From: a virus
Taxonomy: Duplodnaviria > Caudoviricetes
Virus record (IMG/VR): IMGVR_UViG_3300002220_000035
Location: 5,499 to 69,498 of that record
Length of the DNA: 64,000 nt
Direction: 5' to 3' (one strand)
In this document: one piece after another, positions 15,932 to 64,000 of the stretch
Numbering within the stretch: position 1 is the stretch's first letter
Layout of the letters: every line of letters begins with the position of its first letter
Position numbers and translations under genes: made by a program
Notes under the pieces: generated by a model
What the model was told of the DNA's origin: nothing
Databases searched by the model: none
Seen by the model: only the letters and a program-made list of their open reading frames with translations

Positions 15932-15953
15932 ATGCGAGGGATGGGATTCGAAC
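15932..15953 (-). repeat. att core copy 1 (3' 22 bp of tRNA-Leu)
   Basis: ATGCGAGGGATGGGATTCGAAC, identical at 62075-62096 and 63980-64000. Confidence 0.9.
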
Positions 15954-16017
15954 CCAAGAACTCCTACGAGATTAGGCCCTCAACCTAACGCCTTTGACCT
16001 GGCTTGGCTACCCTCGC
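15933..16017 (-). tRNA. tRNA-Leu (GAG), archaeal, CCA not encoded
   Basis: GCGAGGG/CCCTCGC acceptor stem, TTAGG-TTGAGGG-CCTAA anticodon arm, long variable arm, GGTTCGAATCC T-arm. Confidence 0.95.
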
Positions 16018-16077
16018 ATGGGTAACTGAGGAAATGCACCGCGATGCAGCGACAACCCTTGGATCAAGACCCTCAAC

Positions 16078-16104
16078 ATAGTGCAAAACATAGGCACTAT
16101 ATAT
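16078..16104. promoter_or_regulatory. Inverted repeat overlapping a TATA-like box upstream of int
   Basis: ATAGTGC-N9-GCACTAT running into CTATATAT about 22-30 nt before ATG 16126. Confidence 0.45.
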
Positions 16105-16125
16105 GAGCGAAAACCACTCAGGATC

Positions 16126-17253
16126 ATGGGTGTGCTGGACAAATATCGGAAAATCGACCCGGTTAATAAAAAATATTTTACTGATTATCTGCGGTACCTG
16201 CAGCTGCGGAATATCAAATCCACGACGATCGATACTAAGTTCTGGAAAATTTATGGATTCCTCCTCTGGTCGGAGTTCAGGGATGCAAAGGAGGTCCTGC
16301 CGGAGGACCTGGAGAATTTTTACCTGCACCGCAAGGAAACGAAGAGTCCTGTCACGGCTTACGGGGACCTCCAGGAGCTTGAGATCTTCTTCCGCTGGCT
16401 CCTGCCGGATCGGAAGGTAATCACCTTCAAACCGCAACGGCCCCGCGTGGAGATCTCACCCGAGAAGATCCCGCAGGCCCAGGATATCCGGGATATCCTC
16501 GCAGTATGCCAGACGCAGCGGGACCGTGCCCTGGTTGCAACATACTGGAACTCTGGCGGCCGTCTCAGCGAGCTCCTGGATGCCAATGTTGGAAACGTCC
16601 AGTTCGACCGGTACGGTGCGATTATCTCAGTGGATGGAAAAACAGGTAAACGGCAGATCCGGTTGGTCTCCGCGGTCCCGGACCTGCAACTCTGGCTGAG
16701 CCGGTTCCACCCCTACAAGAACGACCCGAATGCCCCGTTATTCGTTACCTCCCGCGAGAGAGGGTCTGGCAAATACGTCCGGCTGAATGCCAGGACCGTG
16801 CAGAACCTGTTCAAGCGCCTGGGTGTCCGGGCGGGCCTCTCGGGAAAGGGAAAGAAGACGAACCCGCATGCATACCGTCACGGATGCGCCACCAACAGGG
16901 CCAAGGACATGACCGAGGCCGAACTGCGGGAATACTTCGGATGGTCGAAAGGATCCACCATGGCCTCGGTGTACGTGCACCTCTCGGGCCGGGATATCGA
17001 CAACAAGGTCCTCGCGATCGATGGAGTAAAGCTCGAGGAAGACCAGGACCCGGACCCGATGCTGCCCCTGGAGTGCCCGCGCTGCAGCCGCAGGAACGCC
17101 CCGGACGCGATCTTGTGCGACCGCTGCAGCATGGCTCTGACTGATGAGGCTCTAAAATTTATGGATGGTGTCCAGGCCCTTCGAAATGATCCCGAAACTC
17201 TCATCGAGTTTGGCGAGTGGCTGATGAAAAAGAACAAAGCCGGCAAGACCTGA
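16126..17253 (+). CDS. int: Tyrosine integrase with C-terminal zinc ribbon
   Basis: Catalytic set R (GGRLSEL), K (GKTGKR), HxxR (HAYRHG), W (GWS), Y (VYVHL); adjacent to att/tRNA. Confidence 0.95.
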   Translation: MGVLDKYRKIDPVNKKYFTDYLRYLQLRNIKSTTIDTKFWKIYGFLLWSEFRDAKEVLPEDLENFYLHRKETKSPVTAYGDLQELEIFFRWLLPDRKVITFKPQRPRVEISPEKIPQAQDIRDILAVCQTQRDRALVATYWNSGGRLSELLDANVGNVQFDRYGAIISVDGKTGKRQIRLVSAVPDLQLWLSRFHPYKNDPNAPLFVTSRERGSGKYVRLNARTVQNLFKRLGVRAGLSGKGKKTNPHAYRHGCATNRAKDMTEAELREYFGWSKGSTMASVYVHLSGRDIDNKVLAIDGVKLEEDQDPDPMLPLECPRCSRRNAPDAILCDRCSMALTDEALKFMDGVQALRNDPETLIEFGEWLMKKNKAGKT

Positions 17254-18006
17254 AAGGGGCTCCCCCCTCGCAATCTCCCGGACGCTTCCCGCCGCTGGCG
17301 CACGGCTGCCATCATGGATCGACCGTGCCGAATGTGATCGGCACCGTCTTCCTGATGGCATGCAGCGCCTGCAGGCTGTCCGCTATCGAATCTGGCCGGT
17401 GCGGCCAGACTCGCGGGAGATATGCAGGTACCCGCCACCCATCCGCCCCTCTCGCCCTGTCCTTCGGACAGCGCGATTCACCCCGCCCCGGATGATGGGT
17501 ATAACCCGGAAGTTAAGGGTTGATCTCCGGGGTAATGGTCAGACAATCCGACCAGAAAATATTTTATCTGATATATCCTTCGTTCCATAATCGCATGTAT
17601 CTTAAACGACTCATCTTTACGGGGTTTAGTGTGGAAGGGCCCGCATCGACAGAGCCGCCTATCAAGAAGATACGTCGGGATTAATTCGCTCCCGCCCGGA
17701 GGTCCGGGCAGGATCTCGGGGTTTATACATTGTTGGAGGCAGTTGGAGAGGTCACCTGCCGTCAGTAGTGAAGATAAGGGAAGGGATGAGCACGACTAGA
17801 AACATCACTTTCGCAATGCATGGAACACAGAATATTATTCATAGAAAATTAAGGAAAACACGGGTGAGTATGAATGTATGACAGGAACAAACACCCCTTA
17901 TTCCCTATTAAAAAGGATCTCCTAGAGGCAGTAAAAAAACAGGATTCATCACCGTTCATCGAATTCCTGATTGAAAAAATGCAGGGAGAAGAGAGAGAGG
18001 ACAAAT

Positions 18007-18387
18007 CTATTTCTTCTTATGCTTCTCAAGCCAATCCGCGTATTCCCGCATCACATCTGGATCTGTCTTGAATTTATTGATATAATCCTTGAAATTCCGC
18101 ATCTCTTCAGCTGCAGCCTGGTTTAATGGTTGCCCGCACCCCCCGCAGTAATTCGTGAAGGGTTCATTGATTTTCATACAGAGCGGGCATTGGTACGGTA
18201 ACAGGGGGGCCTCACGGTTCTCATCAAAATGAGATCCGAGAATCGTGATCATTACCTGACTCGTTTTACAATGATGCTTGTTTGCATCTTTAACGATCGG
18301 GTTCCAGATCTTCGCAGGGACCCTTAACGTTTTGAATTTATGCTCCCCCTCTTTTATCAACCCATCATCATCGGTCATAATCACCAA
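18007..18387 (-). CDS. Ribbon-helix-helix regulator with integrase-like Zn-ribbon tail (candidate repressor)
   Basis: KTLRVP beta-strand plus two helices; C-terminus PLLPYQCPLC...CGGC...DP..REYADWL. Confidence 0.65.
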   Translation of the reverse strand: MVIMTDDDGLIKEGEHKFKTLRVPAKIWNPIVKDANKHHCKTSQVMITILGSHFDENREAPLLPYQCPLCMKINEPFTNYCGGCGQPLNQAAAEEMRNFKDYINKFKTDPDVMREYADWLEKHKKK

Positions 18388-18506
18388 CTGCTTTTGAGTT
18401 ACAATTTAATAAATATTTCCTCACTCGTTAAAATGTGTTAAAAAATTGATAAGTTTTATATACTATTGATACAGAATACCACATTATAACCAAAAGAGGT
18501 GAAAAA
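18388..18506. promoter_or_regulatory. AT-rich divergent promoter (genetic switch)
   Basis: Between divergent small regulators; TTTTATATA; ATTGATA repeated at 18445 and 18465; GTTAAAA at 18427 and 18437. Confidence 0.55.
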
Positions 18507-18704
18507 GTGGACAAAACAAACATGGACGGAACCGAGTGTGTCCGGATCCGGGTCGAACCTAACGATCCCCTGTATCCTGACATCAAGTTCCTGCAGAAGT
18601 GGTACCGCAACCCCGAGATGGTGCGGGAAGCAATCCGCAGACTTGCCACAGCACGCAGGGCAGAAGAGTTCCAGATCAGTCAACCCACCAAGGCGAGCGC
18701 ATGA
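18507..18704 (+). CDS. Small RHH-like DNA-binding protein (Cro-like position)
   Basis: VRIRVE...EMVREAIRRL; first gene of the early operon. Confidence 0.5.
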   Translation: MDKTNMDGTECVRIRVEPNDPLYPDIKFLQKWYRNPEMVREAIRRLATARRAEEFQISQPTKASA

Positions 18705-19084
18705 GCGGGATACTTCTAACTGGAACTGATGAACAGATCGAAGCCTTCGAGAGGGAGGACCCGAAATTCTGCCAGTTTCTGAAGGAGACGGGCAGGTTGG
18801 TACAGAAAGATGAACGCAAAGGTGAACAACATGAAAAAGATAACCGAAAACCATGATGGCAGCTCCACTCCCGCCGTGCAAAGCCAAGAGGGGAAGACTG
18901 CCGGTACAGTATCCGATTCTGAACAAGTGAAAGTTTCCCTGCCATGGATCTGCCAGCAGGGTTGCGGGAAGGCCCCGGCAACCTGCAGGAAGACCGTGCC
19001 GGAATGCGAGCATGCATTGTTCATGCAGAACGAGTCCGAGCGGTTCGCCCCATGTTACCGGCGCCGAAGCGGGAGGGCCCGAGT

Positions 19085-19423
19085 ATGAACGAAGGCTGCA
19101 ATGAATGCCGGTTCGACTCTATGCTCGGATGCACCTATCACAAACCCTGCGATGCGGAATCGGCCCCACCCATTCCGGGATGTCCGTCGAAGAAGACGAA
19201 GATCGACAAAGAGTGCTATACTGTCTGCAAAGGCCCCCGGTCCTGTATTGCTGAGGAGGCCACGCCGATCCTCACCGGTGCCACAGCAGAGTGCGAGCTC
19301 CCGGATAAGAGCAAGTGCCGGTGTTGGCCGACAGAGCATGCCGGCAGGGGTGCGTGCGGCAAAGTCCTGACCAATCCGTTCAGCCCGGTAAAAAACCCGG
19401 CATCTGATTTTGTGGGGTCCTGA
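19085..19423 (+). CDS. Cys-rich hypothetical protein
   Basis: About 12 Cys in 112 aa; translationally coupled start. Confidence 0.55.
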   Translation: MNEGCNECRFDSMLGCTYHKPCDAESAPPIPGCPSKKTKIDKECYTVCKGPRSCIAEEATPILTGATAECELPDKSKCRCWPTEHAGRGACGKVLTNPFSPVKNPASDFVGS

Positions 19424-19425
19424 TC

Positions 19426-19845
19426 ATGGCCGATACAGCACCCGCGTCCGGCGCTATCTACCGCCCGCCGGCCTATGCACTCCTTGAGCAGGACCTGAAA
19501 GATATCGCGATCCTGGTTGATGATGCAGGGATCCCCCGCACGCAGGCCACGGTCCTGATCGCCCTGCACAGGTATGCAAAGGGCAACGTCACGAGCCGTT
19601 GGATCGAACGGGTCGCGGACCTCCGGCAGCCGGAAGTCTCGATCGCCATGGCCGCATTCAAGGTCGCAGGCCTCATCGCTGTGACCGAAGAGAAAGCCCC
19701 ATCGAAAGGCCGCCCGGTGGCCGTCTATCATGTCAAGGGCGATATCGCCCAATACGTCAAGGACAGGATCAGCACACGCCTGGCCGAACTCAACAAGGGC
19801 GTCATGGCCGTGAACCGCATCTTCGCCAAGGAGGCAGCGGCATGA
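19426..19845 (+). CDS. Winged-helix transcriptional regulator (COG4738-like, methanogen type)
   Basis: SRWIERVADLRQPEVSIAM...KGRPVAVY motif. Confidence 0.8.
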   Translation: MADTAPASGAIYRPPAYALLEQDLKDIAILVDDAGIPRTQATVLIALHRYAKGNVTSRWIERVADLRQPEVSIAMAAFKVAGLIAVTEEKAPSKGRPVAVYHVKGDIAQYVKDRISTRLAELNKGVMAVNRIFAKEAAA

Positions 19846-19993
19846 TCCCCGGCTTCTCCATTACTGAAGAGCCGAACCCCCGGTACTGTGCCGCGAGGGC
19901 CTGCCGGTGCGGGATCCCCCGACACCCGGGTCATGATGATGCATGGCAGATTGCACCTGAGGGATGCGCCGCGTGCGTCTCGGAGGGATCGTC

Positions 19994-20380
19994 ATGAAAT
20001 GCAGGATCCTCCCACTCATCGAGAGCGAGATCAACAACTTCCTCGCAACACCCGGTATCAGGATCGCGTCGAAGCACGTCGGACAGAATATCGAGAGGGT
20101 CGGGGAAATCTCGTCAGGAACTGCCGTTATCGGTATCTTCTACGACACCCCCGAAGACGATGCGGCATTCAAGGATCGCATCCTCATCGAGCAGCACAAC
20201 CAGATGGAGCGGCTCCTGGATATCGCCCGGGAAGTCAAGAAGGACGACCGGTATGCGGCCCTCAAGAACAACACGCAGCGGGAGATCTTCCTGTTCACCC
20301 GGTACAATATCCCGGCCAACGATGCGGGAAAAGTGGCCGAGCTCCTGAAACCGGAGATGGCGCCGGTCCTTGGAGCGTGA
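19994..20380 (+). CDS. Hypothetical protein
   Basis: RBS GGAGG; overlaps upstream stop. Confidence 0.6.
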   Translation: MKCRILPLIESEINNFLATPGIRIASKHVGQNIERVGEISSGTAVIGIFYDTPEDDAAFKDRILIEQHNQMERLLDIAREVKKDDRYAALKNNTQREIFLFTRYNIPANDAGKVAELLKPEMAPVLGA

Positions 20381-20385
20381 GTGCC

Positions 20386-21519
20386 ATGACCGAAGATAAG
20401 CGATTCACAAAGCCCTGCGACCGCTGCGGCAAGACGATCGGATTCCGCAAAGAAGGCGGGAGAACCGTCCCCATCAATGAGGATGGCAGCCAGCATTACT
20501 GCCTGAATAAAGACGCCCTGCAACAGCCAAAGGAAGATTCCCGCATCGGCATATACGGCGGAATTACCCGGGGCCGGATCAGCCTCACGCTGAAGAACAG
20601 GGGCATCATGATGACCGAGGCCACGGTCGACCTGCTCAAGTGCCTCACCGATCCAAATGCCACGATCAAGACGGGCATGAAGATCAAGGTCATCTTCGGT
20701 AAAGACGGCAAGGCCGAGAAGGCGGAGATCTGCCCGGATCAGCTGGCCCCGAAAGATCCGCATACGGATAATGGCACCCACGTCCACGAGCCGGTACCGC
20801 CGCAGGGGGATAAGGCAGATTGCACGTCCCAAGGAACCCCTACGGAAGCTCAGGCAACGGCAAAACCCGCCCCGGCTGAAAATGACATCTGGATGGCCGA
20901 GCGGGACGAGTTCTGCAACCTCCTGACCTCAACCGGCCGGGAAGGTATGCCGGACCTCCTCCAATATCTCGTTGAAAAAACGGACTTCTTCATCGCTCCC
21001 TCCTCCGCCAAGTATCACGACGCCCGGGACGGGGGCCTGCTGCACCACAGCCTGAAGGTCTATCATAACCTCGTGACGCTCTCCAAGACATTCGAATGTG
21101 AGACGTCTCAGGACAGCTCCCTGATCATCATCGGCCTGCTGCACGATCTCTGCAAGGCGAACTTTTACAAACTGACCAAGAAGGCGCTGCCCCGCAAGGA
21201 TGACAAGGGCGAGCTCGTCCTCGACACTTACGGAAAAAAGATCTGGGACGATACCCTGGTCTATGACATCGAGGACCAGTTCCCGCTCGGCCACGGGGAG
21301 AAGTCCGTGATCCTGATTCAGCGCTACATCCAGCTCACGGACGAGGAGATCATGGCGATCCGGTGGCACATGGGGGCATACGACGATGTGAAGCAGTCGT
21401 ACGGGGGCAACATTGCCCTCACCAATGCCTCGGAGAAATACCCGATCACGGTCCTGACGCACATCGCGGACCTGTCGGCATCGTTCCTTGAAGTAAGGGC
21501 GCCGGTTGGGGGTGCCTGA
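20386..21519 (+). CDS. HD-domain phosphohydrolase with N-terminal Zn ribbon
   Basis: APSSAKYH...GGLLHHS...LLHDLCK...GHGEKS...AIRWHMG. Confidence 0.85.
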   Translation: MTEDKRFTKPCDRCGKTIGFRKEGGRTVPINEDGSQHYCLNKDALQQPKEDSRIGIYGGITRGRISLTLKNRGIMMTEATVDLLKCLTDPNATIKTGMKIKVIFGKDGKAEKAEICPDQLAPKDPHTDNGTHVHEPVPPQGDKADCTSQGTPTEAQATAKPAPAENDIWMAERDEFCNLLTSTGREGMPDLLQYLVEKTDFFIAPSSAKYHDARDGGLLHHSLKVYHNLVTLSKTFECETSQDSSLIIIGLLHDLCKANFYKLTKKALPRKDDKGELVLDTYGKKIWDDTLVYDIEDQFPLGHGEKSVILIQRYIQLTDEEIMAIRWHMGAYDDVKQSYGGNIALTNASEKYPITVLTHIADLSASFLEVRAPVGGA

Positions 21520-21520
21520 G

Positions 21521-21925
21521 ATGCCCCGCCCCCCCTCCAAGGAAACGCAGATCAAGAACCTCACCAAGGAACTGAACCTCGCCCGGGGCACTATCCAGGA
21601 CAACAGGGCCAGGATCGGTGATCTAGAGAAGCGACTGGCATCAGAAACCGAGAGGGTCGCGACTCTCGGAGGCCGGCTCCAGGATAATGATCGCTTGCAG
21701 CAGGAGATCGTCAGGCTCAAGGCCGAACTGAATTATGTGAAATCCCGCTGGAAGATTATCGAGGATGATCTCTGCCTGAAGTTCAGGGAGGAATGCGAGA
21801 AAAACGGGGCACTGATCCGGGTCATCCGTGGTCACGAGGCCCTGCTGGAGAAGATGCACCGGGCGGCCGTTGAACTCGACACTCAGAACATGACCCTCCG
21901 GAAGGCGCTCAAGGCGGTGCTGTGA
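21521..21925 (+). CDS. Coiled-coil protein
   Basis: Heptad pattern throughout. Confidence 0.6.
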   Translation: MPRPPSKETQIKNLTKELNLARGTIQDNRARIGDLEKRLASETERVATLGGRLQDNDRLQQEIVRLKAELNYVKSRWKIIEDDLCLKFREECEKNGALIRVIRGHEALLEKMHRAAVELDTQNMTLRKALKAVL

Positions 21926-22190
21926 TGTGCAGCGGTTGCGCTCCTGGAGATAGCGACGATTTTGAGGATGACCGTGAACGCTGCCCCGGGGAGATCCCCT
22001 GCGTCTTCTGCCTTGCGCACTTCATGCCCCAATATGGCTCCGCCGTTCAATTTTATCAGGAGATGCCGGACTTTTGCGGGGACCGGCCACTGGAAGAGAT
22101 GCGCCGGTACCTCTACCGCAACGTTGCGGCTGAATATCGGAAAATCTCGGACCTCGTTAGGCATCTCCCAAATATTCCCGGGTGGTCGTA

Positions 22191-22556
22191 ATGGATCCCG
22201 AAAAAAGGACCGGTGCAAACTGCATATTCGGACATCACCAGGCAGGTCCACTTAATTCGATTTATTCCCATTGCAAAATGCAGGTCTGTCCAATTCAATG
22301 CACCCCAGTGACCGAAACTGAATGTAATTACCATCGTACCCTCGTGGAGATGGTCCTTCTTCTGAGTGGACCGGTGCCGGATTGGCAGATGTTCCATACC
22401 TGGGCCTTGGTGGATGAACTCGCGAAACGGGATGGCGTCGAAGATATCCGAGTAAACCCCAATGAGGGTTTCGTTGCTGCAAACTGTGGCAGCGACCATC
22501 AGACTATGCTTCAAGAACGTGGTGGACCCGCTCGCATCCTGGTGGTGATCGACTGA
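22191..22556 (+). CDS. Protein with BC1881-like C-terminal domain
   Basis: LVDELAKRDGVEDIRVNP...GPARILVVID. Confidence 0.55.
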   Translation: MDPEKRTGANCIFGHHQAGPLNSIYSHCKMQVCPIQCTPVTETECNYHRTLVEMVLLLSGPVPDWQMFHTWALVDELAKRDGVEDIRVNPNEGFVAANCGSDHQTMLQERGGPARILVVID

Positions 22557-22713
22557 TGCCCCCATTCAGACGTCCGATTAAGGAGTATTCCATTGAGGGA
22601 GCAAATTCCATGGCAGGTGGCGGATTCGATATCTGCATCCGGCTAGAGCACATGTCATCCGAACAAGTCATCCAACTTGAAAATTTTTTCAAGTCTCAGG
22701 AGTGGATGTCCTG

Positions 22714-22962
22714 ATGCCCCCCCAGCTGCAGCAACAGGTCCCCGTCCCAACGGCTGCCAACTTCCACGCCCATCAACTCGTGTGGTGGAAGGAGCCAGGC
22801 CGGGACGCCAAGCATGGCGACAAAGCCGCATGGGTCATCTCGATCAACCAGGACCTCGACCAGGTCCTGATCGGGTTCTATCAGGAACCCACTTCGAACC
22901 GCGAGGAAAGGACCGAGATCGTCTCTCCCCGCACACTCAGGCCACGGCAGGGGGCGAGGTGA
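22714..22962 (+). CDS. Small SH3/KOW-like hypothetical protein
   Basis: Beta-rich pattern; TGATG coupling. Confidence 0.45.
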   Translation: MPPQLQQQVPVPTAANFHAHQLVWWKEPGRDAKHGDKAAWVISINQDLDQVLIGFYQEPTSNREERTEIVSPRTLRPRQGAR

Positions 22963-23273
22963 TGTCGATCGACATAATCCCCTCTGAAGAGGAGTATAAC
23001 AAAAACCCCGTGTCGACTGCATCCTGGCAGCATGTATATGGCCGCTATGTCTGCTCAACCTGCCATCAGCACTTTAAACCCGGAGATGCCTATACCTCCG
23101 ATAACCATGGCGGGTTCCGGCACGTGGACAAAGCTCAGTGCACGGATACCGCCGACATCAACCTTTTCTTTCACCGTTCCGTGAATCCGAAAGATGTCAT
23201 TACCATCAAAAAGGATGGCACGGTCCTGCTCAACGGGGCCCTGCAGGGCGACTGCCAGATGGAGTTGATGTGA
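22962..23273 (+). CDS. Zn-binding hypothetical protein
   Basis: CSTC...H....C motif; coupled start. Confidence 0.5.
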   Translation: MSIDIIPSEEEYNKNPVSTASWQHVYGRYVCSTCHQHFKPGDAYTSDNHGGFRHVDKAQCTDTADINLFFHRSVNPKDVITIKKDGTVLLNGALQGDCQMELM

Positions 23274-23647
23274 TGTCCCTCATCGGCCCCGGGACCTCTT
23301 ACCCTGATACCGATGCCGAGGAAGCCGCCAACGAGCAGGCCTGCATCGAGGCCCGTAAGGCGGCAGGGGTCCCGAATCCCGAGAATATCGATATCGACTG
23401 CGAAGGGGAATGCCCGATCCGCCTGATCAGTTGTCCCTTCGGCATTCCGAAGAGGGGGTGATGGGTTGACTTCCAGTTCCGAGTCCATCATCGAAGAACT
23501 CTGCAACGATCATGGGATCACTACGGTTGTCGTCCGGTGTCCCTGTGCCTGTAATGCGAATAGCCTGACCGGTCATCCGGTCAAAAACTGCCCTTACTGT
23601 CATGGCGAGGGTGGGATCCAGTATGGAATTGACGAGGTCGAGTTTTC

Positions 23648-24700: not shown

Positions 24701-24949
24701 TCGCCATGGGCACCAACAAAAGCAACCAACGCCCCTCGGTAGCCGAGCGGCAGCGGGCCCGGAAGGTAATGAAGGCCCTGCTGCAGGATACCAAGATCAA
24801 AAGGCAGACACAGGCCGAGACCTTCGAGGCCCTCAAACAACATTACCAGGGGAATATACCCCCGGCCCTGATCTGGGATCAGATGGCGGATCGCAGGATC
24901 GCAGCGAGCACCATGACACGAGGGGCGGAGCTTGCACGGAGCTGACATC

Positions 24950-30120: not shown

Positions 30121-30147
30121 GAAAAACTCGGGACCTACTGCGCCGTC

Positions 30148-49934: not shown

Positions 49935-49935
49935 C

Positions 49936-50873: not shown

Positions 50874-50891
50874 AAAGGAGGTTAAAAATAC

Positions 50892-52436: not shown

Positions 52437-52438
52437 AG

Positions 52439-54584: not shown

Positions 54585-55001
54585 ATGAAACTGAAGTCGT
54601 TTATCAGGGCGTTCCTTGCCCTTGTCACGGTGACGTACACCGGCATGGAATACCAGGCCCGTTACACGAACCAGAGCACGGTCGGATCGTGGAAATGGAT
54701 GGCCATCGGAAAAGGTACTACTGCCGAGGATGCAAACCATACCGCACTCGTAAATGAGTGTACGGAAAGCGGGATGATCCGGGCACTGGCGATCCTCTCA
54801 TATGAATCGTCGTATAAGAGCGTATGGACCGTAACCTACACCAACAACACCGGATCAACGGTTGCCGTCGAAGAAGCGGGGATCTTCGACCAGCTCGCCA
54901 TCGGAGGGCATATGCTCATGCGGGGCCTGATGCCTGCCACTTACAACGTCGCCGCCGCCCAGACCCTTGAAGTGACCATGAAACTCGCGCAGGCAGTGTG
55001 A
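54585..55001 (+). CDS. Baseplate/tail-collar protein
   Basis: MAIGKG...TAL.NE...EAGIF. Confidence 0.6.
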   Translation: MKLKSFIRAFLALVTVTYTGMEYQARYTNQSTVGSWKWMAIGKGTTAEDANHTALVNECTESGMIRALAILSYESSYKSVWTVTYTNNTGSTVAVEEAGIFDQLAIGGHMLMRGLMPATYNVAAAQTLEVTMKLAQAV

Positions 55002-55789: not shown

Positions 55790-55798
55790 GCGGCCACC

Positions 55799-58087
55799 AT
55801 GGCCGCGAATCTTTGGAGACATTGTCTCAGCAACCGGCTTAAGTCAGGAGATCTCCTGCGAAAAGATCGCAACTCCTGTTCGAGTGACATAGCGGAGGGG
55901 TTCTTTGAGGGAGGAAAAACCATCTCCCTCCCATCAGCGACAATCAGAATTACTCCCAGTGTGATCTACATCAAGGGCGTCAACGAAGCAGTGGCCCTCG
56001 ATACCGCCACGATCATCATCTCCCCCGACCCGTTTTGGGTATCGGATGCCATGAAAGGGACGATCAGGATGGTGCCGGGGCTCATCTACATCAAGGGCAT
56101 CAACGAGGCCGTGGTCCTCGATACCGCCACGATCCGGATGATAACCCCCGAACTGTCACCGCCGGAACTCCCGAAGATTACATTATGGGCACAGATCACG
56201 ATCGAAGGATCGCTCCATTGCGGCCCTGCCCCACCCCCGCACCAGTATCATGGATCCGTGTTCCGCAGGTGCCCGTCGGACCGGCTCGACTCATCGATGC
56301 TTGTCAGGCGGTTCATGACCGATAACCCCTCGTTGCGTCCGGTAGCCTCGGAATATTTCGAACCGGGGCAGGGTGTCATTCTCGACACGGCAACCCTCCA
56401 TCTCACAGGGAGCATGTCATATGCGGGAATTGACGCGAATGTCACGCTGGAAGGTACGATCAGGATGGTTCCGCAGACCCCCACCCTCGCTGCGGGTATT
56501 GTGATGGAGGGCACGATCTATCTGGTCCCTCTCAACCCCACAGTCCGGATCTTCCTGCCGCCATCCGGGGGCGATATCGAAACAGGCCTTCCTCAGCTCT
56601 GCACGAATATTGAGATCTCCCAATCCCTGCAGAACAAAGTGGCGCTTGGATCGTTCGACTTCGAGCTCGCTGAGACGGGCGGGTATTACAGCGGGATCTA
56701 TTTCAGCGATGTCGTGGTGAGCCTGCCGGACCATCTCGGGGTCATGCATCCTGTTTTTGTGGGTTTCTTCCACTCTACAGATGCAAACTATGGAGAGGCC
56801 GACTATCACGAGAATTTCCCCGCGTATGATCCCATCTGGAATCTCGGGATGGCAAACCTCAACGATGCCGACCGCATGATCCTCTCAGCAGAGAGCCAGG
56901 CCTCACAAACACGGTTCCGGCAATATTTCGTTTTCGCCGAATTACAAAACGGATGGCCGAAAGTCGGAGACATCATCCAGGGGGGGACCACTGGAGACTT
57001 CGGTAAAATCGTCTACGTCAAGAATTACGGACTTCCATGTTTCGAAGTCGAGAATCCCCACCACGGCGATCCCCTGAACACCTCAGAGGGTTACTTCACC
57101 GACGGGGAGGTCCTCGAAGTCGGAGGGGTGCAGCTCTGTTACGCTGACGGGAACTCGATCGATGTCTCCGAGGAAATAACCTCGACTCCGCGAACTATCG
57201 GCGATTGGGTGAGGGCCGTCCTTGGAGCTGAGAACTGGCAGGAGGAGACGAAGGTCGAGCCCTTTAATATCATCGATCCTGGTGTGTCTCCAGTCGACTT
57301 CATTTTTGATGAGGGATCGAGTATCATCGCGGCCATCGAGAGAGTGGCAAAACGGATGTCCTATGTATTCCTTGGACGTCTGCGGGGGGATCCCGGGTCT
57401 GCTATCTTCTCGGGGTACTTCATCCCGCAGGGCGACATTGATACACAACTCGGCCTTCCGACCCCGGTGACCTTCGCACTTGGGAATGAGTACGTCCTGA
57501 GACCGATCAAGATGACCATGAAGGGCGATCAGAAATATAATCGCGTCACGATCAAATGCCAGGGCTTCGATCTCACCTGGTTCAAGGCCGTGCTCGGCGG
57601 CAATGAGAAACCCATCAAGGACTATTTTGAGATCAATCCCGATCTCGCCACACAGGCCGAGTGCAATACCCGGTGTGCAGACGTCTATAATTACTATCGT
57701 AAGATGGTCACGACCTGGAACATGACGATCCTCAAGCGCCAGGACCTCCAGTACCTGCAGAAACTCATCTTTTCCGGGTATGGAACCGAGATCCCGGACG
57801 ACACGTATCGGATCGTTGCAATAAAACGCAGGTATGCCGAAGGTGGCAGCATCAACGAGGTGGATGTATCGGTCGTCCTGGATGCTGATTTCGCCTTGTA
57901 CCTGAACCTCTCCAGGGTCTTCACGGACGCAGGGACGGAGATGGCCGCGATGGCCCGGTCCGAACTTCTCAAGATGGGCGCGAACGAGACCGGCATCGTG
58001 ACTGCGGTTGATGAGATCACGGGAAAGGTTACGCTCATTACTTCGGGTGGACAGGTCCGGACCGGCGCGGAGGGAGACAATACTTGA
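55799..58087 (+). CDS. Tail-tip/baseplate hub protein
   Basis: C-terminal two-thirds homologous to 11376-14849; N-terminal repeats (IYIKG.NEAV.LDTATI). Confidence 0.7.
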   Translation: MAANLWRHCLSNRLKSGDLLRKDRNSCSSDIAEGFFEGGKTISLPSATIRITPSVIYIKGVNEAVALDTATIIISPDPFWVSDAMKGTIRMVPGLIYIKGINEAVVLDTATIRMITPELSPPELPKITLWAQITIEGSLHCGPAPPPHQYHGSVFRRCPSDRLDSSMLVRRFMTDNPSLRPVASEYFEPGQGVILDTATLHLTGSMSYAGIDANVTLEGTIRMVPQTPTLAAGIVMEGTIYLVPLNPTVRIFLPPSGGDIETGLPQLCTNIEISQSLQNKVALGSFDFELAETGGYYSGIYFSDVVVSLPDHLGVMHPVFVGFFHSTDANYGEADYHENFPAYDPIWNLGMANLNDADRMILSAESQASQTRFRQYFVFAELQNGWPKVGDIIQGGTTGDFGKIVYVKNYGLPCFEVENPHHGDPLNTSEGYFTDGEVLEVGGVQLCYADGNSIDVSEEITSTPRTIGDWVRAVLGAENWQEETKVEPFNIIDPGVSPVDFIFDEGSSIIAAIERVAKRMSYVFLGRLRGDPGSAIFSGYFIPQGDIDTQLGLPTPVTFALGNEYVLRPIKMTMKGDQKYNRVTIKCQGFDLTWFKAVLGGNEKPIKDYFEINPDLATQAECNTRCADVYNYYRKMVTTWNMTILKRQDLQYLQKLIFSGYGTEIPDDTYRIVAIKRRYAEGGSINEVDVSVVLDADFALYLNLSRVFTDAGTEMAAMARSELLKMGANETGIVTAVDEITGKVTLITSGGQVRTGAEGDNT

Positions 58088-59622
58088 CGAATGAATCCGG
58101 AAAGCCCACGCTGAGGTTCACTGATTCTTCAGGCAAGGGTATAGCGATGCCACTAAATAAAGTGGTTGCGGGAACTCCTGTAGTACGTTCGACCGATCTT
58201 TCAGGAAAGAGTGTTATTTTTCCAGCTTCGAAAGTTGAGGTTGGCCAGAAAGTTATCCGCCTTACCGATATATCGGGGAAGGGCATCGTAGTGGCAGCGG
58301 ACGGAGGTTCTAATATCCCATTCAGCGATGATGTCGACCCGTGCCGGGCGTTCACGGTGATTGAAGACCCTGATCGCCCGGGCGCGTTTCTTCTGACGTG
58401 GTTACCCGGTCTCAATAACGATGAGGTCGAATTCGACTTCAATTGTGACTTCCGGTATTATCCGAAGTCTCCGAGGTCTGGTGAGAAATTCGCTACGTGG
58501 CCGGTGCAATATGACGAAGAGGGAGAAATGCTGCCCGGCACCGTGACAAGAAGACCCATACGGCTTTTCCAATGGCATTATTTCTCGATATGGGGAAAAC
58601 GGCAGGGGAAGTATTCTAAAATCGCGCTGCACGTGAAGGCGTTCGTCACGATGGCCGGCATCCTCGGAAAACTCAGAATGTGGATATTCGGTTATCAGGG
58701 GAATCTCCTGCCAGAGGGTGACTTCGAGAGGGGAATCGAACAGTTCTCCAGCCAAATCAGCGATATCGGCTCACACTGGACTATACAGGCCGGAGCCGCT
58801 TCCCTTGCAGAGAACATTTCTCACACGGGAAAAAATAGTTTCTATGGCAGGTATGGTTCGGTGTGCGCTAACGGTGGGCGTGAATTCGGCACCATCACGG
58901 TTCTCAAACCCACCATAGCAAGTATCTGGATGTGCATTTTACTCCCGGAAGGTCTAGAAGGAAGCGACGAATTTCAGGATAACCCGTGGCTGATATTCGC
59001 GCGGATTGGTTCAGGTGGTCAGGACGTTGATGACTACGTGAAGCCCTACTACTACGGGCAATGGAAAACCGGATATTGGTTCCGACTCTCGACGGCAATT
59101 CTACCGGTTCCCCCAAATTACCAACGGAGTTATTCTTTCTGGCTCGGTCATACCACTGCATACCCTCCATATGGAATCGGAGGCACAGTCGTCTACATGG
59201 ACGACGCATCGGTGAGATATGCAGAGGACCCCGAATCGTGGATGCTCACCGGGGAGAGCGACGTCCCCCCGAACGAGCTCTATGGTAGCGGGGTGAGGGT
59301 CTACATCAACAAGATCGGCCCCGCCGCAGGGGTCCCGTATGCCAATTACATCATCCACTTCTGGGATCCGGTGGCATATGCGGGATACATTGCCTTTAGA
59401 CTTATCGACCCCGACCATGGAATATTGGAAGTATGGGCGCATCTGACGGGTGAAGAATTGGACGACGATTACGAAGATTACACGAAGGGTTTACCACGGG
59501 AGATATACTTCGGGGATATCCAACTCTGCAATTCCACGAACACCCGGCTTTTCCGGGTTTATGATTATCACGGGTTCCTGCCAATCTCTCTTCTGTGGCC
59601 ACTTGGCGATATTATCGATTAG
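58084..59622 (+). CDS. Putative receptor-binding/tail fibre protein
   Basis: Last structural gene; N-terminal TD.SGK repeats; carbohydrate-binding-like N..P.GDFE motif. Confidence 0.55.
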   Translation: MTNESGKPTLRFTDSSGKGIAMPLNKVVAGTPVVRSTDLSGKSVIFPASKVEVGQKVIRLTDISGKGIVVAADGGSNIPFSDDVDPCRAFTVIEDPDRPGAFLLTWLPGLNNDEVEFDFNCDFRYYPKSPRSGEKFATWPVQYDEEGEMLPGTVTRRPIRLFQWHYFSIWGKRQGKYSKIALHVKAFVTMAGILGKLRMWIFGYQGNLLPEGDFERGIEQFSSQISDIGSHWTIQAGAASLAENISHTGKNSFYGRYGSVCANGGREFGTITVLKPTIASIWMCILLPEGLEGSDEFQDNPWLIFARIGSGGQDVDDYVKPYYYGQWKTGYWFRLSTAILPVPPNYQRSYSFWLGHTTAYPPYGIGGTVVYMDDASVRYAEDPESWMLTGESDVPPNELYGSGVRVYINKIGPAAGVPYANYIIHFWDPVAYAGYIAFRLIDPDHGILEVWAHLTGEELDDDYEDYTKGLPREIYFGDIQLCNSTNTRLFRVYDYHGFLPISLLWPLGDIID

Positions 59623-59630
59623 GAGAAACA

Positions 59631-59645
59631 ATTATCCCCTCAGAA
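59631..59645 (+). promoter_or_regulatory. Second copy of ATTATCCCCTCAGAA
   Basis: Identical to 14870-14884. Confidence 0.5.
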
Positions 59646-59660
59646 TATTATTAGTGGGAT

Positions 59661-60197
59661 ATGCAAAAGTGGCAAGTCGCTGCTCTGATCCTTGTCGGAA
59701 TTGCGATCGTACTTACCTGCGGATGTATGAGCCAGGCGGCACCTCAGCAGGTGACGCCAACGGCAACGGTCATCCAGACCGCAGCCCCCATTGTGACATC
59801 GGTTTCCCCGACCGCGATCATCACGACCCCGCCGATACCAACCACTATAGAAACCACGGAACCAACACCAGTACCGACCACAGACACATCAGCCGGTGCA
59901 CTGGACGCACCTGTGCACCTGAGTTCAAAACTTCCTCCTGAAGGAAAAATCGCCTTCACAACGGTCCGTCCTGGGGAGGTCAAAATCCGTGTGTATTGTC
60001 TGTCCCCCGCAAAGGCCGTATTGACTTCAGCGAGTATGGATCAGGTATTACTGCAGGCAAAGAGCAGCCCAGGATCATCGAAAGAGATAACAATCAACCT
60101 TATCACGCCACAGACATACTGGATCACTTTTTCAGGGTTCAACAAGGCAGATATCGGCACTCAGAAAATGTGGCAACTCGACGTGACCAATGCATAG
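59661..60197 (+). CDS. Archaeal lipoprotein (cargo)
   Basis: LTCGC lipobox and Thr/Pro linker; homolog of 14901-15506. Confidence 0.75.
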   Translation: MQKWQVAALILVGIAIVLTCGCMSQAAPQQVTPTATVIQTAAPIVTSVSPTAIITTPPIPTTIETTEPTPVPTTDTSAGALDAPVHLSSKLPPEGKIAFTTVRPGEVKIRVYCLSPAKAVLTSASMDQVLLQAKSSPGSSKEITINLITPQTYWITFSGFNKADIGTQKMWQLDVTNA

Positions 60198-60208
60198 GAC
60201 AAGAGAAA

Positions 60209-60529
60209 ATGTTCTGTATTCATTGTGGCACGGAGAATCCGAATAATGTTTTATATTGCAGAAATTGCGGTCGCTTTATTCCAAGAAAACAACTTGAAGA
60301 GATCCAAGATGAATATAAAATTAATGTTAGTATTTCCATCATCGTCGGCATTTGTACCGGTATAATATCTGGAATTTTCTCTTCAGCATTCAGTTCCACA
60401 TGGAAACCAGAATTATGGCAAGGTGTATTAATCACTCTATCGGTAATCGTGGCAATTGTTTTACTTATTTGGACCGCATTAAAAACTCTGGAAGACTCAT
60501 TAAAAAGGAGACTTAAACGAAATCTCTAG
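60209..60529 (+). CDS. Zn-ribbon plus two-TM membrane protein
   Basis: MFCIHCGTEN...YCRNCG followed by two hydrophobic helices. Confidence 0.7.
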   Translation: MFCIHCGTENPNNVLYCRNCGRFIPRKQLEEIQDEYKINVSISIIVGICTGIISGIFSSAFSSTWKPELWQGVLITLSVIVAIVLLIWTALKTLEDSLKRRLKRNL

Positions 60530-60576
60530 CTAATCAAATGAAAAAATTAATCGTCTTAAAATATTCTTAGCAACAT

Positions 60577-61854
60577 ATGAAATTTCCTGCATTCTGCGCA
60601 CTTGTAATAATCTTCCTGCTTTTAGTATCGGGATGCAGTTCACCCCCACCGCAATCCTCCACGAATATCGAAAACAACCTGCCGCTTCCGTCTACTCCCA
60701 CAATCACCACTCCTTTGATGACCTCGCAACCGTCAACAGGTACACCCTCCAGCGGGGAGATGACAGTATCTTTCATCGATGTCGGGCAGGGAGATTCCGA
60801 GCTTATCCAGTTCCCTTCGGGGAAAACTATGCTCATCGATGCCGGCCCCACAGATGCCGGATCAACGGTCTCGAACTACCTCAGGAGCCGGGGGATATCC
60901 ACGATCGATATGGTCGTGGCAACACATCCGCATGAGGATCATATCGGAGGGATGTCAACAGTTCTGAATGGATTCACCGTGAAGCAGTTCGTTGATAGTG
61001 GATATCCTCACACGACCAGCACCTACGAGAATATGCTCATTCTTATAGATAAGAAAAACATCCCGTTCCGGACTGTTGCAAAAGGGGATACAATCAGCCT
61101 GGATCCCTCAGTCTCGATTACCGTTCTTAATCCCCCATTATTATTTTCCGACGAGATAAACGAGAACTCAGTAGTTCTTAAAATCGTTTATGGAAAAGTC
61201 ACATTCCTTTTCATGGGTGACGCCAGCAGTATTACAGATCATGCCGACATCCTGAAAGTACCGCACCACGGTAGTAACACCGGCGCATCCTCATTATTAC
61301 AGATAGACCCCGCGGTCAGCATTATCGAGGTTGGTGCAGGGAACTCTTACGGACATCCGACAGCGACAACGCTTCAGCGCCTGCAGCAGACTGGTTCAGG
61401 TATATACCGCACCGACAGGGATGGAACAATCATTGTCACCTCAAATGGTGAAACCTATTCAGCGAGTCAGACGAAAACCGCAGGGACCACCTCCACGACC
61501 GTAATCCCAATAATTGCAAAAGCACAGTATACAACTGTGACGACAACCACGGTCAGCGGAACGACCTCCTGCGATTGTTCATCCAACCGGTATAATTGTG
61601 CAGATTTTGCGTCAAAAACAAAAGCTCAATCGTGTTATGATTATTGTATTAATCAAGGAAAAGGCGATGTTCATGGACTTGATGGAGATAACGATGGTCT
61701 GGCATGTGAAAGTGGGACATCAGGATCATCCTCTACAACGTACAAAACTACTTCGTCAAGTGGGAGCGGGAGTTGTCCCGCCGGTAAATGTTGGGTGAAT
61801 GGTTATTATAGAAAATCCGGAACATATGTAAAGGGTTACTGTCGGAGTTGTTAA
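60577..61854 (+). CDS. ComEC/Rec2-like metallo-beta-lactamase-fold nuclease lipoprotein with Excalibur-like domain
   Basis: FIDVGQGDS, THPHEDHIGG, KVPHHGS, YGHP, YRTD..G; LDGDNDGLACE. Confidence 0.88.
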   Translation: MKFPAFCALVIIFLLLVSGCSSPPPQSSTNIENNLPLPSTPTITTPLMTSQPSTGTPSSGEMTVSFIDVGQGDSELIQFPSGKTMLIDAGPTDAGSTVSNYLRSRGISTIDMVVATHPHEDHIGGMSTVLNGFTVKQFVDSGYPHTTSTYENMLILIDKKNIPFRTVAKGDTISLDPSVSITVLNPPLLFSDEINENSVVLKIVYGKVTFLFMGDASSITDHADILKVPHHGSNTGASSLLQIDPAVSIIEVGAGNSYGHPTATTLQRLQQTGSGIYRTDRDGTIIVTSNGETYSASQTKTAGTTSTTVIPIIAKAQYTTVTTTTVSGTTSCDCSSNRYNCADFASKTKAQSCYDYCINQGKGDVHGLDGDNDGLACESGTSGSSSTTYKTTSSSGSGSCPAGKCWVNGYYRKSGTYVKGYCRSC

Positions 61855-62072
61855 TTTTGAAAGCTACAATTGACCGTATAGAAGGGAATCTTGCAATCCT
61901 GATCACACAGGACGAAAAGCCAATAACATTTAATCTCCCTGTACCGTTCCTGGGAGATGCACGGGAGGGAGATATTGTCGATATCACTATCACCCAAGAT
62001 ACCGGGAGCACGCAGACTACCAGAGAACGTGTATCCTCAATGATTGAGAAACTGAAAAAGAAATCGAACTAA
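61848..62072 (+). CDS. DUF3006-like small protein
   Basis: IDRIEGNLAIL...LP.....EGDIV; usual partner of ComEC-like genes. Confidence 0.75.
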   Translation: MLILKATIDRIEGNLAILITQDEKPITFNLPVPFLGDAREGDIVDITITQDTGSTQTTRERVSSMIEKLKKKSN

Positions 62073-62074
62073 AA

Positions 62075-62096
62075 ATGCGAGGGATGGGATTCGAAC
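62075..62096 (-). repeat. att core copy 2
   Basis: 22-bp identity with the tRNA-Leu 3' end. Confidence 0.9.
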
Positions 62097-62097
62097 G

Positions 62098-62127
62098 ATG
62101 TGGCAGCTCGACGTGACCAACGCCTAA
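62098..62127 (+). pseudogene. 3'-terminal fragment (MWQLDVTNA*) of a homolog of the 59661-60197 lipoprotein gene
   Basis: 26/30 nt identical to 60168-60197; all four differences at third codon positions. Confidence 0.8.
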
Positions 62128-62221
62128 CTAGGCCATGAATGTTATGCGATGATGTAATGTGAATAACTTTTTTGACCGAAACGATTAAGCTCCCCCAATA
62201 CATAACGTCAATCAGAAGTAA

Positions 62222-63199
62222 ATGGAGGCAGTAGAGATGGTTGAAAAAGATGGAGAGTCAAAAAATACGCTTCAAAGAAAATATAAAGCGGACCTAGCGT
62301 ATTTTAAATTCCGTCCAAAAGACTATCCGACACCCGATGAGGCGAGTGGATTGTATGAAGATCATTCCTATAAAGGAATCAATCTTGATACAATTTATTT
62401 TGAAGACTGCATTTCTGGTATGGAAAAACTTCCCGCTGAATGCGTGGATCTTGGAATTGCGGATCCCCCATTCGGGATTGATTTTTCCGGGAAAGGAAGT
62501 GTCTACAATAGAGATCGGGATCTGGTAATTAATTCCTATCAGGAGATAGATGCAGATTATGGGGCATTCACAAAAGATTGGATGACCGCTCTTCAACGTA
62601 TCATGAAACCCCATGCGTCAGCATATGTATTCAGTGGGTGGAATCATCTGGAAGATGTTTTACGGGCTGCCCGATTGGCTGGTCTCAGTACGATCAACCA
62701 TGCCATCTGGAAATATCAGTTTGGGGTATTCACCAAGAAGAAATTCGTCACAAGCCATTATCATGTTCTTCTTCTCGCAAAAAACTCGAATAAATACTAC
62801 TTCAATAAAATGGAGCACTATCCTCTCGACGTTTGGGATATCAAACGGAAATACAAAAAAGGAGAGAAAAAGAATGCTACAACTCTGCCAACTGATGTGA
62901 TACGAAGATGCATTGAGTTCAGTTCAAGACCAGGTGATCTTGTTTTCGATCCCTTCATGGGGATGGCAACTACTGCCGTTGTTGCGAAAGGTGTCTGGCG
63001 CCATTATCTCGGATTTGAACTTAACACCAATTTGGCACCGGTTATCGATGAAAGGATTGATGGCGTTTCATTAGGGCAAGATTATATTACCATAGAAGAT
63101 AGACTAAGAAAAATTGAGGAAGAAGGCCGTACAAAATATAAATCTGCGTACCGGGCGTTTTTGCGAGAATCAGAGGTGAAACAAATTGCCAAGTCCTAA
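62222..63199 (+). CDS. Beta-class N4-C/N6-A DNA methyltransferase
   Basis: IADPPF...VFDPFMGMATT. Confidence 0.92.
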   Translation: MEAVEMVEKDGESKNTLQRKYKADLAYFKFRPKDYPTPDEASGLYEDHSYKGINLDTIYFEDCISGMEKLPAECVDLGIADPPFGIDFSGKGSVYNRDRDLVINSYQEIDADYGAFTKDWMTALQRIMKPHASAYVFSGWNHLEDVLRAARLAGLSTINHAIWKYQFGVFTKKKFVTSHYHVLLLAKNSNKYYFNKMEHYPLDVWDIKRKYKKGEKKNATTLPTDVIRRCIEFSSRPGDLVFDPFMGMATTAVVAKGVWRHYLGFELNTNLAPVIDERIDGVSLGQDYITIEDRLRKIEEEGRTKYKSAYRAFLRESEVKQIAKS

Positions 63200-63941
63200 A
63201 GAAGAAGCAGTCATCATTATTGATGCACTGTTCGATGAAGTCGGAGCCACCGGGGGATACTCCCCCCACGGGGATGTTCCTGGTATCGACGGGCGAGAGG
63301 CCCTTATTGAAATGAAGGAGGCTGGATTTCCCGGGTGGGGTGAAGTTGAATGGGCTGGATATTATCTGAAATTCCTTCTACAGAAAACTTGCAGTGATCA
63401 ATTATCAGGAATGGTTAAACCTCTTGATCTTGAGCATAAACGACATTTTATCAAAGGACAGTTTGTCTGGGATGCCCGATTAAGTTCTGATGAAATGAGT
63501 GCTGTGGCTTTGGGCGCAGTGAACGAATACGCCGATATTATCGAAGCGAATGGGGGTATCGGAGTATTGGTTGCGGATGCAGCAGTAATTAAGGATGATT
63601 CCGGGGATTTCAAGCGATTCCAAAGCGAAATGAAAGGGGAAGTCAGCGATTATGAGATCCGAGCGGAGGTTGAGGGGAAACCCCCACAACCCCGTAAAGA
63701 AGCATTCATGATCCGTAAAGTATATGCCTATTTTTTTACCCTTGCAGATCTCAAAGAAGGTGTGAAAAACCGGTGGGCTAAAGATAATTTCCAGCGCACT
63801 ATGAAAAATTCTAATGACCAGCCACGAGGGGGGAAATATATGATTAAAATTGATTCTGTCCCTCGTAAACATCTCCTATTTGTAAAAAATTTCAATGAAG
63901 ATCTTACTGAATTTAAGAAAGAGTTTCCGGAATTCTCTTAA
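63186..63941 (+). CDS. Putative type II restriction endonuclease
   Basis: Overlaps the MTase by 14 nt; size and EWAGYY...WD.R pattern fit; catalytic motif not clearly canonical. Confidence 0.55.
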   Translation: MPSPKEEAVIIIDALFDEVGATGGYSPHGDVPGIDGREALIEMKEAGFPGWGEVEWAGYYLKFLLQKTCSDQLSGMVKPLDLEHKRHFIKGQFVWDARLSSDEMSAVALGAVNEYADIIEANGGIGVLVADAAVIKDDSGDFKRFQSEMKGEVSDYEIRAEVEGKPPQPRKEAFMIRKVYAYFFTLADLKEGVKNRWAKDNFQRTMKNSNDQPRGGKYMIKIDSVPRKHLLFVKNFNEDLTEFKKEFPEFS

Positions 63942-63979
63942 TCCTTCATTATTTTTGTTTGATCTTTCTGAAAAACAGA

Positions 63980-64000
63980 ATGCGAGGGATGGGATTCGAA
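63980..64000 (-). repeat. att core copy 3 (truncated by the window edge; possibly the 3' end of the host tRNA-Leu)
   Basis: ATGCGAGGGATGGGATTCGAA. Confidence 0.88.

Follow-up and report, generated by a model that had tools for sequence, protein, structure and literature searches.

The 64,000-nt stretch of viral DNA analysed here, called the window, covers bases 5499-69498 of the 69,498-bp IMG/VR record IMGVR_UViG_3300002220_000035. The record is classed as linear, and window and record share their right end. A complete tRNA-Leu gene separates two blocks of head-tail virus DNA, that of V1 on its left and that of V2, with the integrase int2, on its right. It is likely that this tRNA gene, a short spacer, a copy of the anticodon loop (the loop mimic) and int2 form one integration module, that crossover takes place in the anticodon loop of a host tRNA-Leu gene, which is replaced by the viral one, and that the record joins V1 to V2. 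Window positions 15932-63979 are one complete genome of V2, a head-tail virus of Methanoregulaceae methanogens, circularly closed at ~48 kb.

The integration module and its predicted crossover site

The module is built from the following parts, attP being the attachment site of the virus:

15933..16017 (-): complete tRNA-Leu(GAG) gene (ARAGORN; Rfam RF00005, 49.7 bits)
16025..16069: spacer between the tRNA and the attP core, with the conserved motif GCGATGCAGCG...AACCCTTG..CAAG
16070..16077: predicted attP common core CCCTCAAC, 8 bp, ~50 bp past the tRNA
CCCTNAAC: core motif of the predicted anticodon-loop attP
16097..16105 (+): TATA box of a leaderless int transcript, read from the sequence, ~26 nt before the ATG
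16126..17253 (+): tyrosine integrase int2, 375 aa (Pfam PF00589, 6.6e-16), with a SAM-like N domain

The ATG of int2 lies 108 nt from the tRNA 5' end, and the core ~50 nt upstream of this ATG. A complete tRNA-Leu gene 108 bp from int, with no host DNA upstream, had already been described in a first-pass annotation of the window, and ARAGORN, Rfam and direct reading confirm it. On the tRNA strand, CCCTCAAC corresponds to the anticodon loop plus one stem base, and its flanks (16065-16083) mimic the anticodon stem. Positions 16070-16077 are the predicted crossover site of V2, by comparison with integrated relatives whose switch falls at the same motif. No TATA box of the tRNA's own was found within 30 nt of its 5' end. 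The int TATA box is conserved in five related loci (L004, L005, L007, L009 and L010), and homologous spacers of 44-62 nt are present in L004, L007, L010, G154/G155 and the right junctions of L009, G053 and G123. Against NCBIfam, int2 gives a XerA-like match below the cutoff. It has 450 homologs, the named ones coming from Methanoregula and Methanosarcinales. A scan of IMG/VR found no close int relatives, and an exact search of the same database with the V2 spacer gave no match.

The same layout recurs in relatives. Two viral genomes that are 100% complete, G001 (39,271 bp, 127-nt terminal repeat) and G155 (36,147 bp, terminal repeat), each contain a single internal full tRNA-Leu gene, then a spacer of ~45 nt, the anticodon-loop copy, a TATA box and int; the tRNA 3' end occurs in one copy only. 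L004 and L007 are arranged as V2 is. This order of tRNA, spacer, mimic and int is kept across integrases that are only 41-60% identical and across three anticodons, which match the isotype of the target. The first-pass claim of a complete tRNA-Leu gene on the virus, at attP, is borne out by the closure of V2 through its tRNA in four assemblies, and the full tRNA-Leu that it expected beside int in related viral genomes is seen in G001, G155, L004 and L007.

Homologs of the integrase (41-60% identity) are integrated in 31 of the 151 sampled genomes of the family, to which a Methanoregula metagenome-assembled genome belongs. All 13 loci that were fetched have a 3' portion of tRNA-Leu at most ~100 nt upstream of int. 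Both junctions are visible in six genomes (L009, G003, G053, G123, G027 and G094), inside the tRNA-Leu gene. From host DNA, the left junction passes through the tRNA 3' half and the anticodon loop to int; the right junction leads from the element end through the complete tRNA-Leu, a 44-62 nt spacer, the anticodon loop and the tRNA 5' half to the host TATA box. The two host halves match each other in the anticodon stems (CCGGA/TCCGG, CCAGG/CCTGG, CAAGG/CCTTG) and in the acceptor stems, and both differ from the element copy by paired changes in these stems. When the host halves were rejoined in silico, ARAGORN called a tRNA-Leu for five of the six genomes; for G053 the script had paired the wrong 5' half, and complementarity was judged by eye instead. 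At attL (the left junction) and at the orphan 5' half of the relatives, ARAGORN called no tRNA. Crossover at the tRNA 3' end, as first proposed, does not hold for these elements, as all six cross over at the anticodon loop.

The full set of sites is available for one lineage with a CAG anticodon. The two halves in G123 together equal the intact tRNA-Leu(CAG) gene of G003, which has the same promoter and represents the empty site. The host site attB (G003), attP (G155), attL (G123) and the right junction attR (G123, G154) have only GGCCCTGAACCT in common. The core measures 8 bp in G027, 12 bp in the CAG lineage and 17 bp in L009. Homology of attP beyond the loop is limited to 0-7 nt, and the host 5' half is followed by the spacer, not by its 3' half. 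The element tRNA is a tRNA-Leu in all cases and has the anticodon of its target in five of the six; in G053 the junction loops differ (GAG vs CAG). The integrase frame is open, ~370-440 aa without stops, in most integrated copies. In G104 and G076 the far element ends were not found within 60 kb.

The tRNA-Leu gene might also be ordinary viral cargo, serving codon supply or defence evasion and lying near attP by accident, with the host tRNA normally rebuilt. V2 does carry a tRNA-Met elsewhere, and phage tRNAs often serve translation. Such an accidental position is very improbable given the order of tRNA, spacer, mimic and int, kept across these divergent integrases with three anticodons that always match the target isotype, and given the host gene, which is visibly not rebuilt in the six genomes.

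A more distant integrase, that of G041 (43% identity; G041:C12, L077, L089, L090), has a classical 29-nt repeat of the tRNA 3' end beside int, and in G041:C12 a rebuilt tRNA-Leu(CAA) lies 40 kb from int. Splitting and rebuilding modes therefore coexist in one integrase family, as in mycobacteriophages.

Some further observations concern the parts of the module. The window tRNA has a U-U at the outermost T-stem pair (U49-U65), as have the host tRNA-Leu genes of the family; this mismatch was considered as a sign of a hybrid tRNA, and the idea was dropped since the host genes share it and it is hence native. In the V1-like virus L004 (IMG/VR 3300035379_000053), ~900 bp before the tRNA (10693-11595) are unlike V1 and encode a membrane open reading frame (ORF), and the 14 nt directly 3' of the tRNA resemble window positions 63966-63979. 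This comparison suggests a conserved short arm or tRNA trailer beside a swappable cargo slot. The 13.7-kb element of G053 (L068) has CCCTCAA at attL and CCCTGAA at attR, which differ in the middle anticodon base; it may have entered a tRNA-Leu gene of another anticodon than its supplied copy, a possible isoacceptor switch. In the metagenome contig L014 (4765-7321), a 60%-identical int is arranged back to back with a Prim-Pol gene and another integrase, which is divergent; two neighbouring elements may share one tRNA-Leu site here.

The closed V2 genome and its join to V1

Two stretches of the window define the ends of the V2 genome:

15932..16024: 93-bp segment, identical in V1 and V2 contexts, at which the record switches from V1 to V2
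63980..64000 (-): wrap-around of circular V2, the first 21 nt of the tRNA-Leu gene at 15932ff

The V2 unit (15932-63979) measures 48,048 bp, including a restriction-modification segment between the repeats at 62075 and 63980, called E3. Four contigs from four samples (L030, L031, L032 and L034) read from the end of a 251-aa ORF at the right end of E3 through the full tRNA-Leu and the spacer into int2, at 100% identity to the window on both sides of the junction; therefore position 64000 continues into 15953. Logan contigs lengthen the third repeat by CCAAGAAC, which is tRNA sequence. A check set beforehand, namely whether the tRNA gene goes on beyond 64000, is thereby answered positively by the Logan contigs and by the four assemblies. 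In addition, the two ends of the MEGAHIT contig k141_566822 (48,225 bp) overlap exactly over 141 nt, across the end of E3 and the tRNA, which is the signature of a circular assembly. The first-pass annotation had predicted a 46.1-kb circle from recombination between 15932 and 62075; the closed unit is ~48.05 kb and includes the restriction-modification segment.

That prediction started from repeats that are real. The 22-mer ATGCGAGGGATGGGATTCGAAC, reverse complement of the tRNA stretch that runs from T loop to discriminator, has exact copies at 15932 and 62075 (0.01 expected by chance; two or more copies in 0 of 100 shuffles), and the repeat at 63980-64000 consists of its first 21 nt, cut by the end of window and record. 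On the tRNA strand each repeat is followed by a T-rich tract that differs from one to the next, as had been noted before and as reading the sequence confirms. It is the role of att cores that the repeats lose, the crossover of the relatives lying in the anticodon loop.

On the assumption that the integrase crosses over at the tRNA 3' end, with three such cores and a circle of 46.1 kb, the stretch had been read as a stacked array of proviruses, each integration adding an extra tRNA and a new target. Tandem arrays of islands, with cis-mobilizable remnants, are known at tRNA genes and are explained by an accretion model. The window resembles them in repeating the tRNA 3' end in direct orientation, two of the copies enclosing a segment that contains cargo only, and the distant G041 integrase does have the classical repeat with a rebuilt tRNA. 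We give this array very little credence. A tandem array has host DNA at its outer ends and units bounded by the integrase's own att repeat; neither is found here, and no host DNA or host gene is recognisable anywhere in the record. The closed V2 unit takes in the segment between the second and third cores. The second core is followed by a truncated gene tail, not by an element end, so that one repeat is a deletion relic and another the wrap-around of the circle. The complete relatives have one tRNA 3' end only, and the six two-junction examples cross at the anticodon loop, splitting the host gene. Finally, the join of the two viruses falls inside the 93-bp repeat, V2 closes on itself, and V1 leads into another integrase in an assembly at k=141. 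To call the two blocks proviruses is an interpretation that goes beyond what was observed.

The record consists of a 21-kb V1 fragment and one full turn of V2, joined within the identical 93-bp tRNA segment. This join is probably an assembly chimera. The contig L007 is identical to V1 over 9,700 of 9,700 nt, and the identity goes on through the tRNA to 16024; past this point, L007 has another spacer and an integrase, int', that is 89% identical to int2 at the nucleotide level. L030 is identical to the window for 11,322 nt. Both contigs come from sample ERZ27315067, whose k=141 assembly leads from V1 to int' and from V2 to int2. In depth run X2, the tRNA segment reaches 15,417 against 130 for V1 and 29 for V2, and the depths of V1 and V2 are uncoupled across runs (130 vs 29, 3.2 vs 8.8, 0 vs 9.2). 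The two viruses occur together in hydrocarbon (tailings) samples. The public runs were read as k=31 Logan contigs, which break at the tRNA and are too short to span the 93-bp repeat. Public contigs have clusters of loose ends at 15924-15932 and 16017/16024. One of the ends at 15932 has the V2 flank that precedes the 62075 repeat, reflecting either a variant lacking E3 or the double placement of a two-repeat contig. No loose end was seen at 16070-16077 in the Logan contigs, which drop rare forms and are silent on V2 integration there. The record follows the crossed path and breaks off once the repeat is reached again.

Alternatively, V1-tRNA-V2 could be a real molecule, a hetero-concatemer or tandem pair formed by homologous recombination in the 93-bp segment, episomal or chromosomal beyond the record; the integration module would then work in the same way. 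Past end-to-end joining of related viruses, followed by deletion, is suggested by the relic beside E3, viral tRNA copies with an intact anticodon loop could act as secondary targets, and contigs are unable to prove that such molecules are absent. We nevertheless consider a real molecule unlikely: the switch lies exactly inside the identical repeat, the k=141 assembly of the sample holding both viruses keeps the two paths apart, the depths are uncoupled, and the record ends where the repeat is re-entered. The spacer to the right of the tRNA is that of V2, not that of L007, which excludes a site-specific joint at the loop mimic. A V1/V2 hybrid att site at the loop mimic had been considered and was dropped on the same ground, the spacer left of the mimic being that of V2, not of V1. 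With the chimera as the preferred reading, a likely chimeric viral record is corrected, the true V2 genome being ~48 kb and circularly closed.

Proposed replacement of the host tRNA-Leu gene

The integrated relatives show how integration proceeds. The integrase cuts the host tRNA-Leu gene in the anticodon loop, and because attP and attB share only ~8-17 bp, the gene is not rebuilt. The host 3' half remains next to int, and the host 5' half comes to lie, with its promoter, directly upstream of the complete tRNA of the element. What follows is proposed: this tRNA would be driven by the captured host promoter, and its transcript would have the orphan half and the spacer as a leader that is trimmed by RNase P. 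It would replace the only genomic copy of its isoacceptor, and the host would become dependent on the element.

Several findings bear on this proposal. In eight element-borne tRNA copies, 11 of 25 helix pairs have compensatory double changes and none is broken, the cloverleaf being kept; since pairs are compensated and never broken, the element copies are real genes. As a rule, a genome carries a single gene for each of the Leu anticodons GAG, CAG and UAG, so that an occupied locus has no intact gene besides the element copy. The earlier idea that each integration supplies an extra tRNA-Leu has to be turned around: the host gene is split, and the viral copy substitutes instead of adding.

The clearest case is G053, a complete genome on a single contig of 2.82 Mb. 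Its CAG, UAG and GAG loci are all doublets, in which a full tRNA stands 90-105 nt from an orphan 5' half:

G053:C1, near 1319846-1319968: doublet
G053:C1, near 1449860-1449975: doublet
G053:C1, near 1979035-1979163: doublet (the three correspond to L068 and L094-L098)

An integrase is found only at the CAG locus, with none near the other two and none within 60 kb of the GAG doublet. The window tRNA is identical, at 85 of 85 positions, to the only full tRNA-Leu(GAG) found in G053. The GAG doublet thus looks like a scar, in which a foreign copy identical to the window tRNA would now serve as the gene of the host. The chances seem evenly balanced that viruses and small elements of Methanoregulaceae serially replace the single-copy tRNA-Leu genes of their hosts for CUN codons, with the foreign copy persisting after the element has decayed. 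If true, the elements would have an addiction-like hold on the host, and split or fragmented tRNA genes of archaea would arise naturally in this way, as possibly would anticodon switching.

In G003, the 3' flanks of the GAG gene (L024, C24:226-311) and the CAG gene (L026, C33:1499-1584) are identical over at least 70 bp. Behind the GAG gene follows a 47-nt stretch ending in a decayed motif like a tRNA 5' end, just before the conserved host promoter. This stretch may be an old replacement scar.

A number of points weigh against replacement and against the reading of the record given above. The 141-nt terminal overlap would fit not only a circle but equally a concatemer or a linear genome with terminal redundancy. 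No integrated copy of V2 was found, the use of its core being judged from relatives with integrases 41-60% identical, and its loop mimic differs from the tRNA at three flanking positions. The k=31 contigs leave room for a real V1-V2 molecule. Transcription from the host promoter, processing by RNase P and dependence of the host are steps that we infer only, and tRNA-Leu(UAG) might cover the CUN codons, which would weaken the dependence.

The closest known system is tRNA-dependent lysogeny, described for the actinobacteriophages Fionnbharth (K4), Cluster L and Gaia, and possibly the Lactobacillus prophage Lj965 (Guerrero-Bustamante & Hatfull, mBio 2024, PMC10865867). There, the common core is short, the tRNA stays unrepaired, and the loss is complemented by a phage tRNA that has the same isotype, as demonstrated experimentally in mycobacteriophages (PMC10865867). 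The elements studied here share with it a tyrosine integrase, an attB in a host tRNA gene, a short core, the lack of rebuilding and the supply of a tRNA whose isotype matches, and in both systems close relatives of the integrase use the classical rebuilding mode. These features are found in the relatives, and would hold for V2 itself by extension from them. Unlike in the actinobacteriophages, the hosts are archaea (Methanoregulaceae), and the carriers are small elements of 4-21 kb as well as viruses of 36-48 kb. The tRNA of Fionnbharth lies away from attP, overlaps a gene and has its own demonstrated promoter (PMC10865867), whereas here the tRNA is 44-62 nt from the attP core and lands behind the orphan host 5' half and its promoter. 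Lysogens may need the tRNA for survival here too; the evidence is indirect and consists of gene counts in which the element has the sole full copy. Among papers using the term "tRNA-dependent lysogeny", no archaeal title was found, and a search on Methanoregula proviruses returned nothing relevant. We regard the system as a variant of tRNA-dependent lysogeny that is archaeal and has its tRNA adjacent to attP. This lifestyle, known until now from bacteriophages only, is thereby extended to archaeal viruses and small integrative elements.

Integration into tRNA genes reportedly falls into classes by sublocation, distinguished by Williams in 2002, the anticodon loop being one of them. With classical anticodon-loop integration, the present elements have in common a tyrosine recombinase and the use of the 7-nt loop and the stem as overlap and core-type sites. 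In a classical attP, the tRNA is contiguous from the crossover to its 3' end, so that the gene is regenerated under its own promoter and only a 3' fragment is displaced. Here, the homology of attP stops shortly beyond the loop, the two halves of the host gene are left orphaned, and the element brings a separate gene that is whole. Rebuilding modes are the only ones described in a review of archaeal tyrosine recombinases, which also reports that the SSV1 integrase cuts bordering the anticodon loop (PMC8371274). The "suicidal" integrases of the SSV type and those of the pTN3 type (PMC8371274) are likewise archaeal tyrosine integrases targeting tRNA genes; in contrast to the SSV type, attP lies upstream of int here, not inside it, and int stays intact on integration, as its open frames indicate.

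The integrated loci also recall split tRNA genes and models in which mobile elements disrupt tRNA genes of archaea (Sugahara et al. 2012, PMC3293823), with a 5' fragment apart from a full gene, a recombinase element and a break in the anticodon loop. Differing from those models, the full set of att sites, the element and the empty site are all seen here, and the halves are presumably dead; joining in trans or intron gain is not implied.

In this methanogen family, host tRNA-Leu genes appear to have been replaced repeatedly by copies from mobile elements, which bears on the evolution of tRNA genes and on the origin of halves split at the anticodon loop. The compact architecture of tRNA, spacer, mimic and int can be recognised from sequence alone. 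Tools for islands and proviruses that expect a rebuilt tRNA and a 3' fragment will misplace the ends of such elements and misread the orphan 5' halves. The cassette of attP, tRNA and int is a possible integration vector for methanogens.

The 62075 repeat, the E3 cargo and other features

The second repeat and the segment behind it contain the following features:

62075..62096: 22-bp relic, the 3' end (T loop to discriminator) of the former tRNA copy of V2
62098..62127 (+): tail of a lipoprotein gene, the last 10 codons (MWQLDVTNA, stop), homolog of the lipoprotein gene of V2
62222-63199 (+): N6/N4 DNA methyltransferase (PF01555, 6e-29)
63186-63941 (+): 251-aa ORF, overlapping the end of the methyltransferase gene by 14 nt

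The 62075 repeat goes back to an older tRNA copy, of which it is a relic, and is not an att site, since the truncated lipoprotein gene tail follows it directly. The tail matches 60168-60190 at 22 of 23 nt and encodes an identical peptide. It appears to be the left edge of DNA acquired from a third related virus. The simplest history is a fusion followed by a deletion: V2 would once have stood head to tail with the third relative, and a deletion from the interior of its own tRNA to the end of the neighbour's lipoprotein gene would have left it with the cargo and tRNA of the neighbour, plus 22 nt of its old copy. E3 was also considered as an att-flanked mobilizable cassette of a T-loop-specific integrase; this was dropped, its left edge being the last 10 codons of the lipoprotein gene. 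The cargo of methylase and 251-aa ORF (62222..63941) has a low GC content (42%) and is now fixed in V2, being present in all V2 contigs seen. The 251-aa ORF has no match in Pfam or NCBIfam and is a candidate restriction endonuclease of a new family.

The remainder of the window is laid out as follows:

1..15931 (+): V1 fragment with late/tail genes, a lipoprotein gene (14901-15506) and then a 132-aa ORF at its end
16019..62074 (+): V2 body with int, replication genes, tRNA-Met (36987-37062), TerL (39766-41298) and tail genes
59661-60197, 60577-61854 and 61858-62073: lipoprotein, MBL-fold protein and DUF3006 ORF at the right end of the V2 body

Both blocks are head-tail virus DNA, with TerL and int in the right one, and the left block aligns collinearly with the right third of the other, at ~72% nucleotide identity. 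The record holds 5.5 kb more of V1 to the left of the window and lacks the V1 int and early region. The MBL-fold protein (60577-61854, +; 425 aa) has an Excalibur domain and lies in a cargo slot of low GC content (45%). Weak similarity links it to ComEC/Rec2 and to MBL proteins found in anti-phage systems, and its precomputed hits include a faint flag for the anti-Pycsar protein Apyc1.

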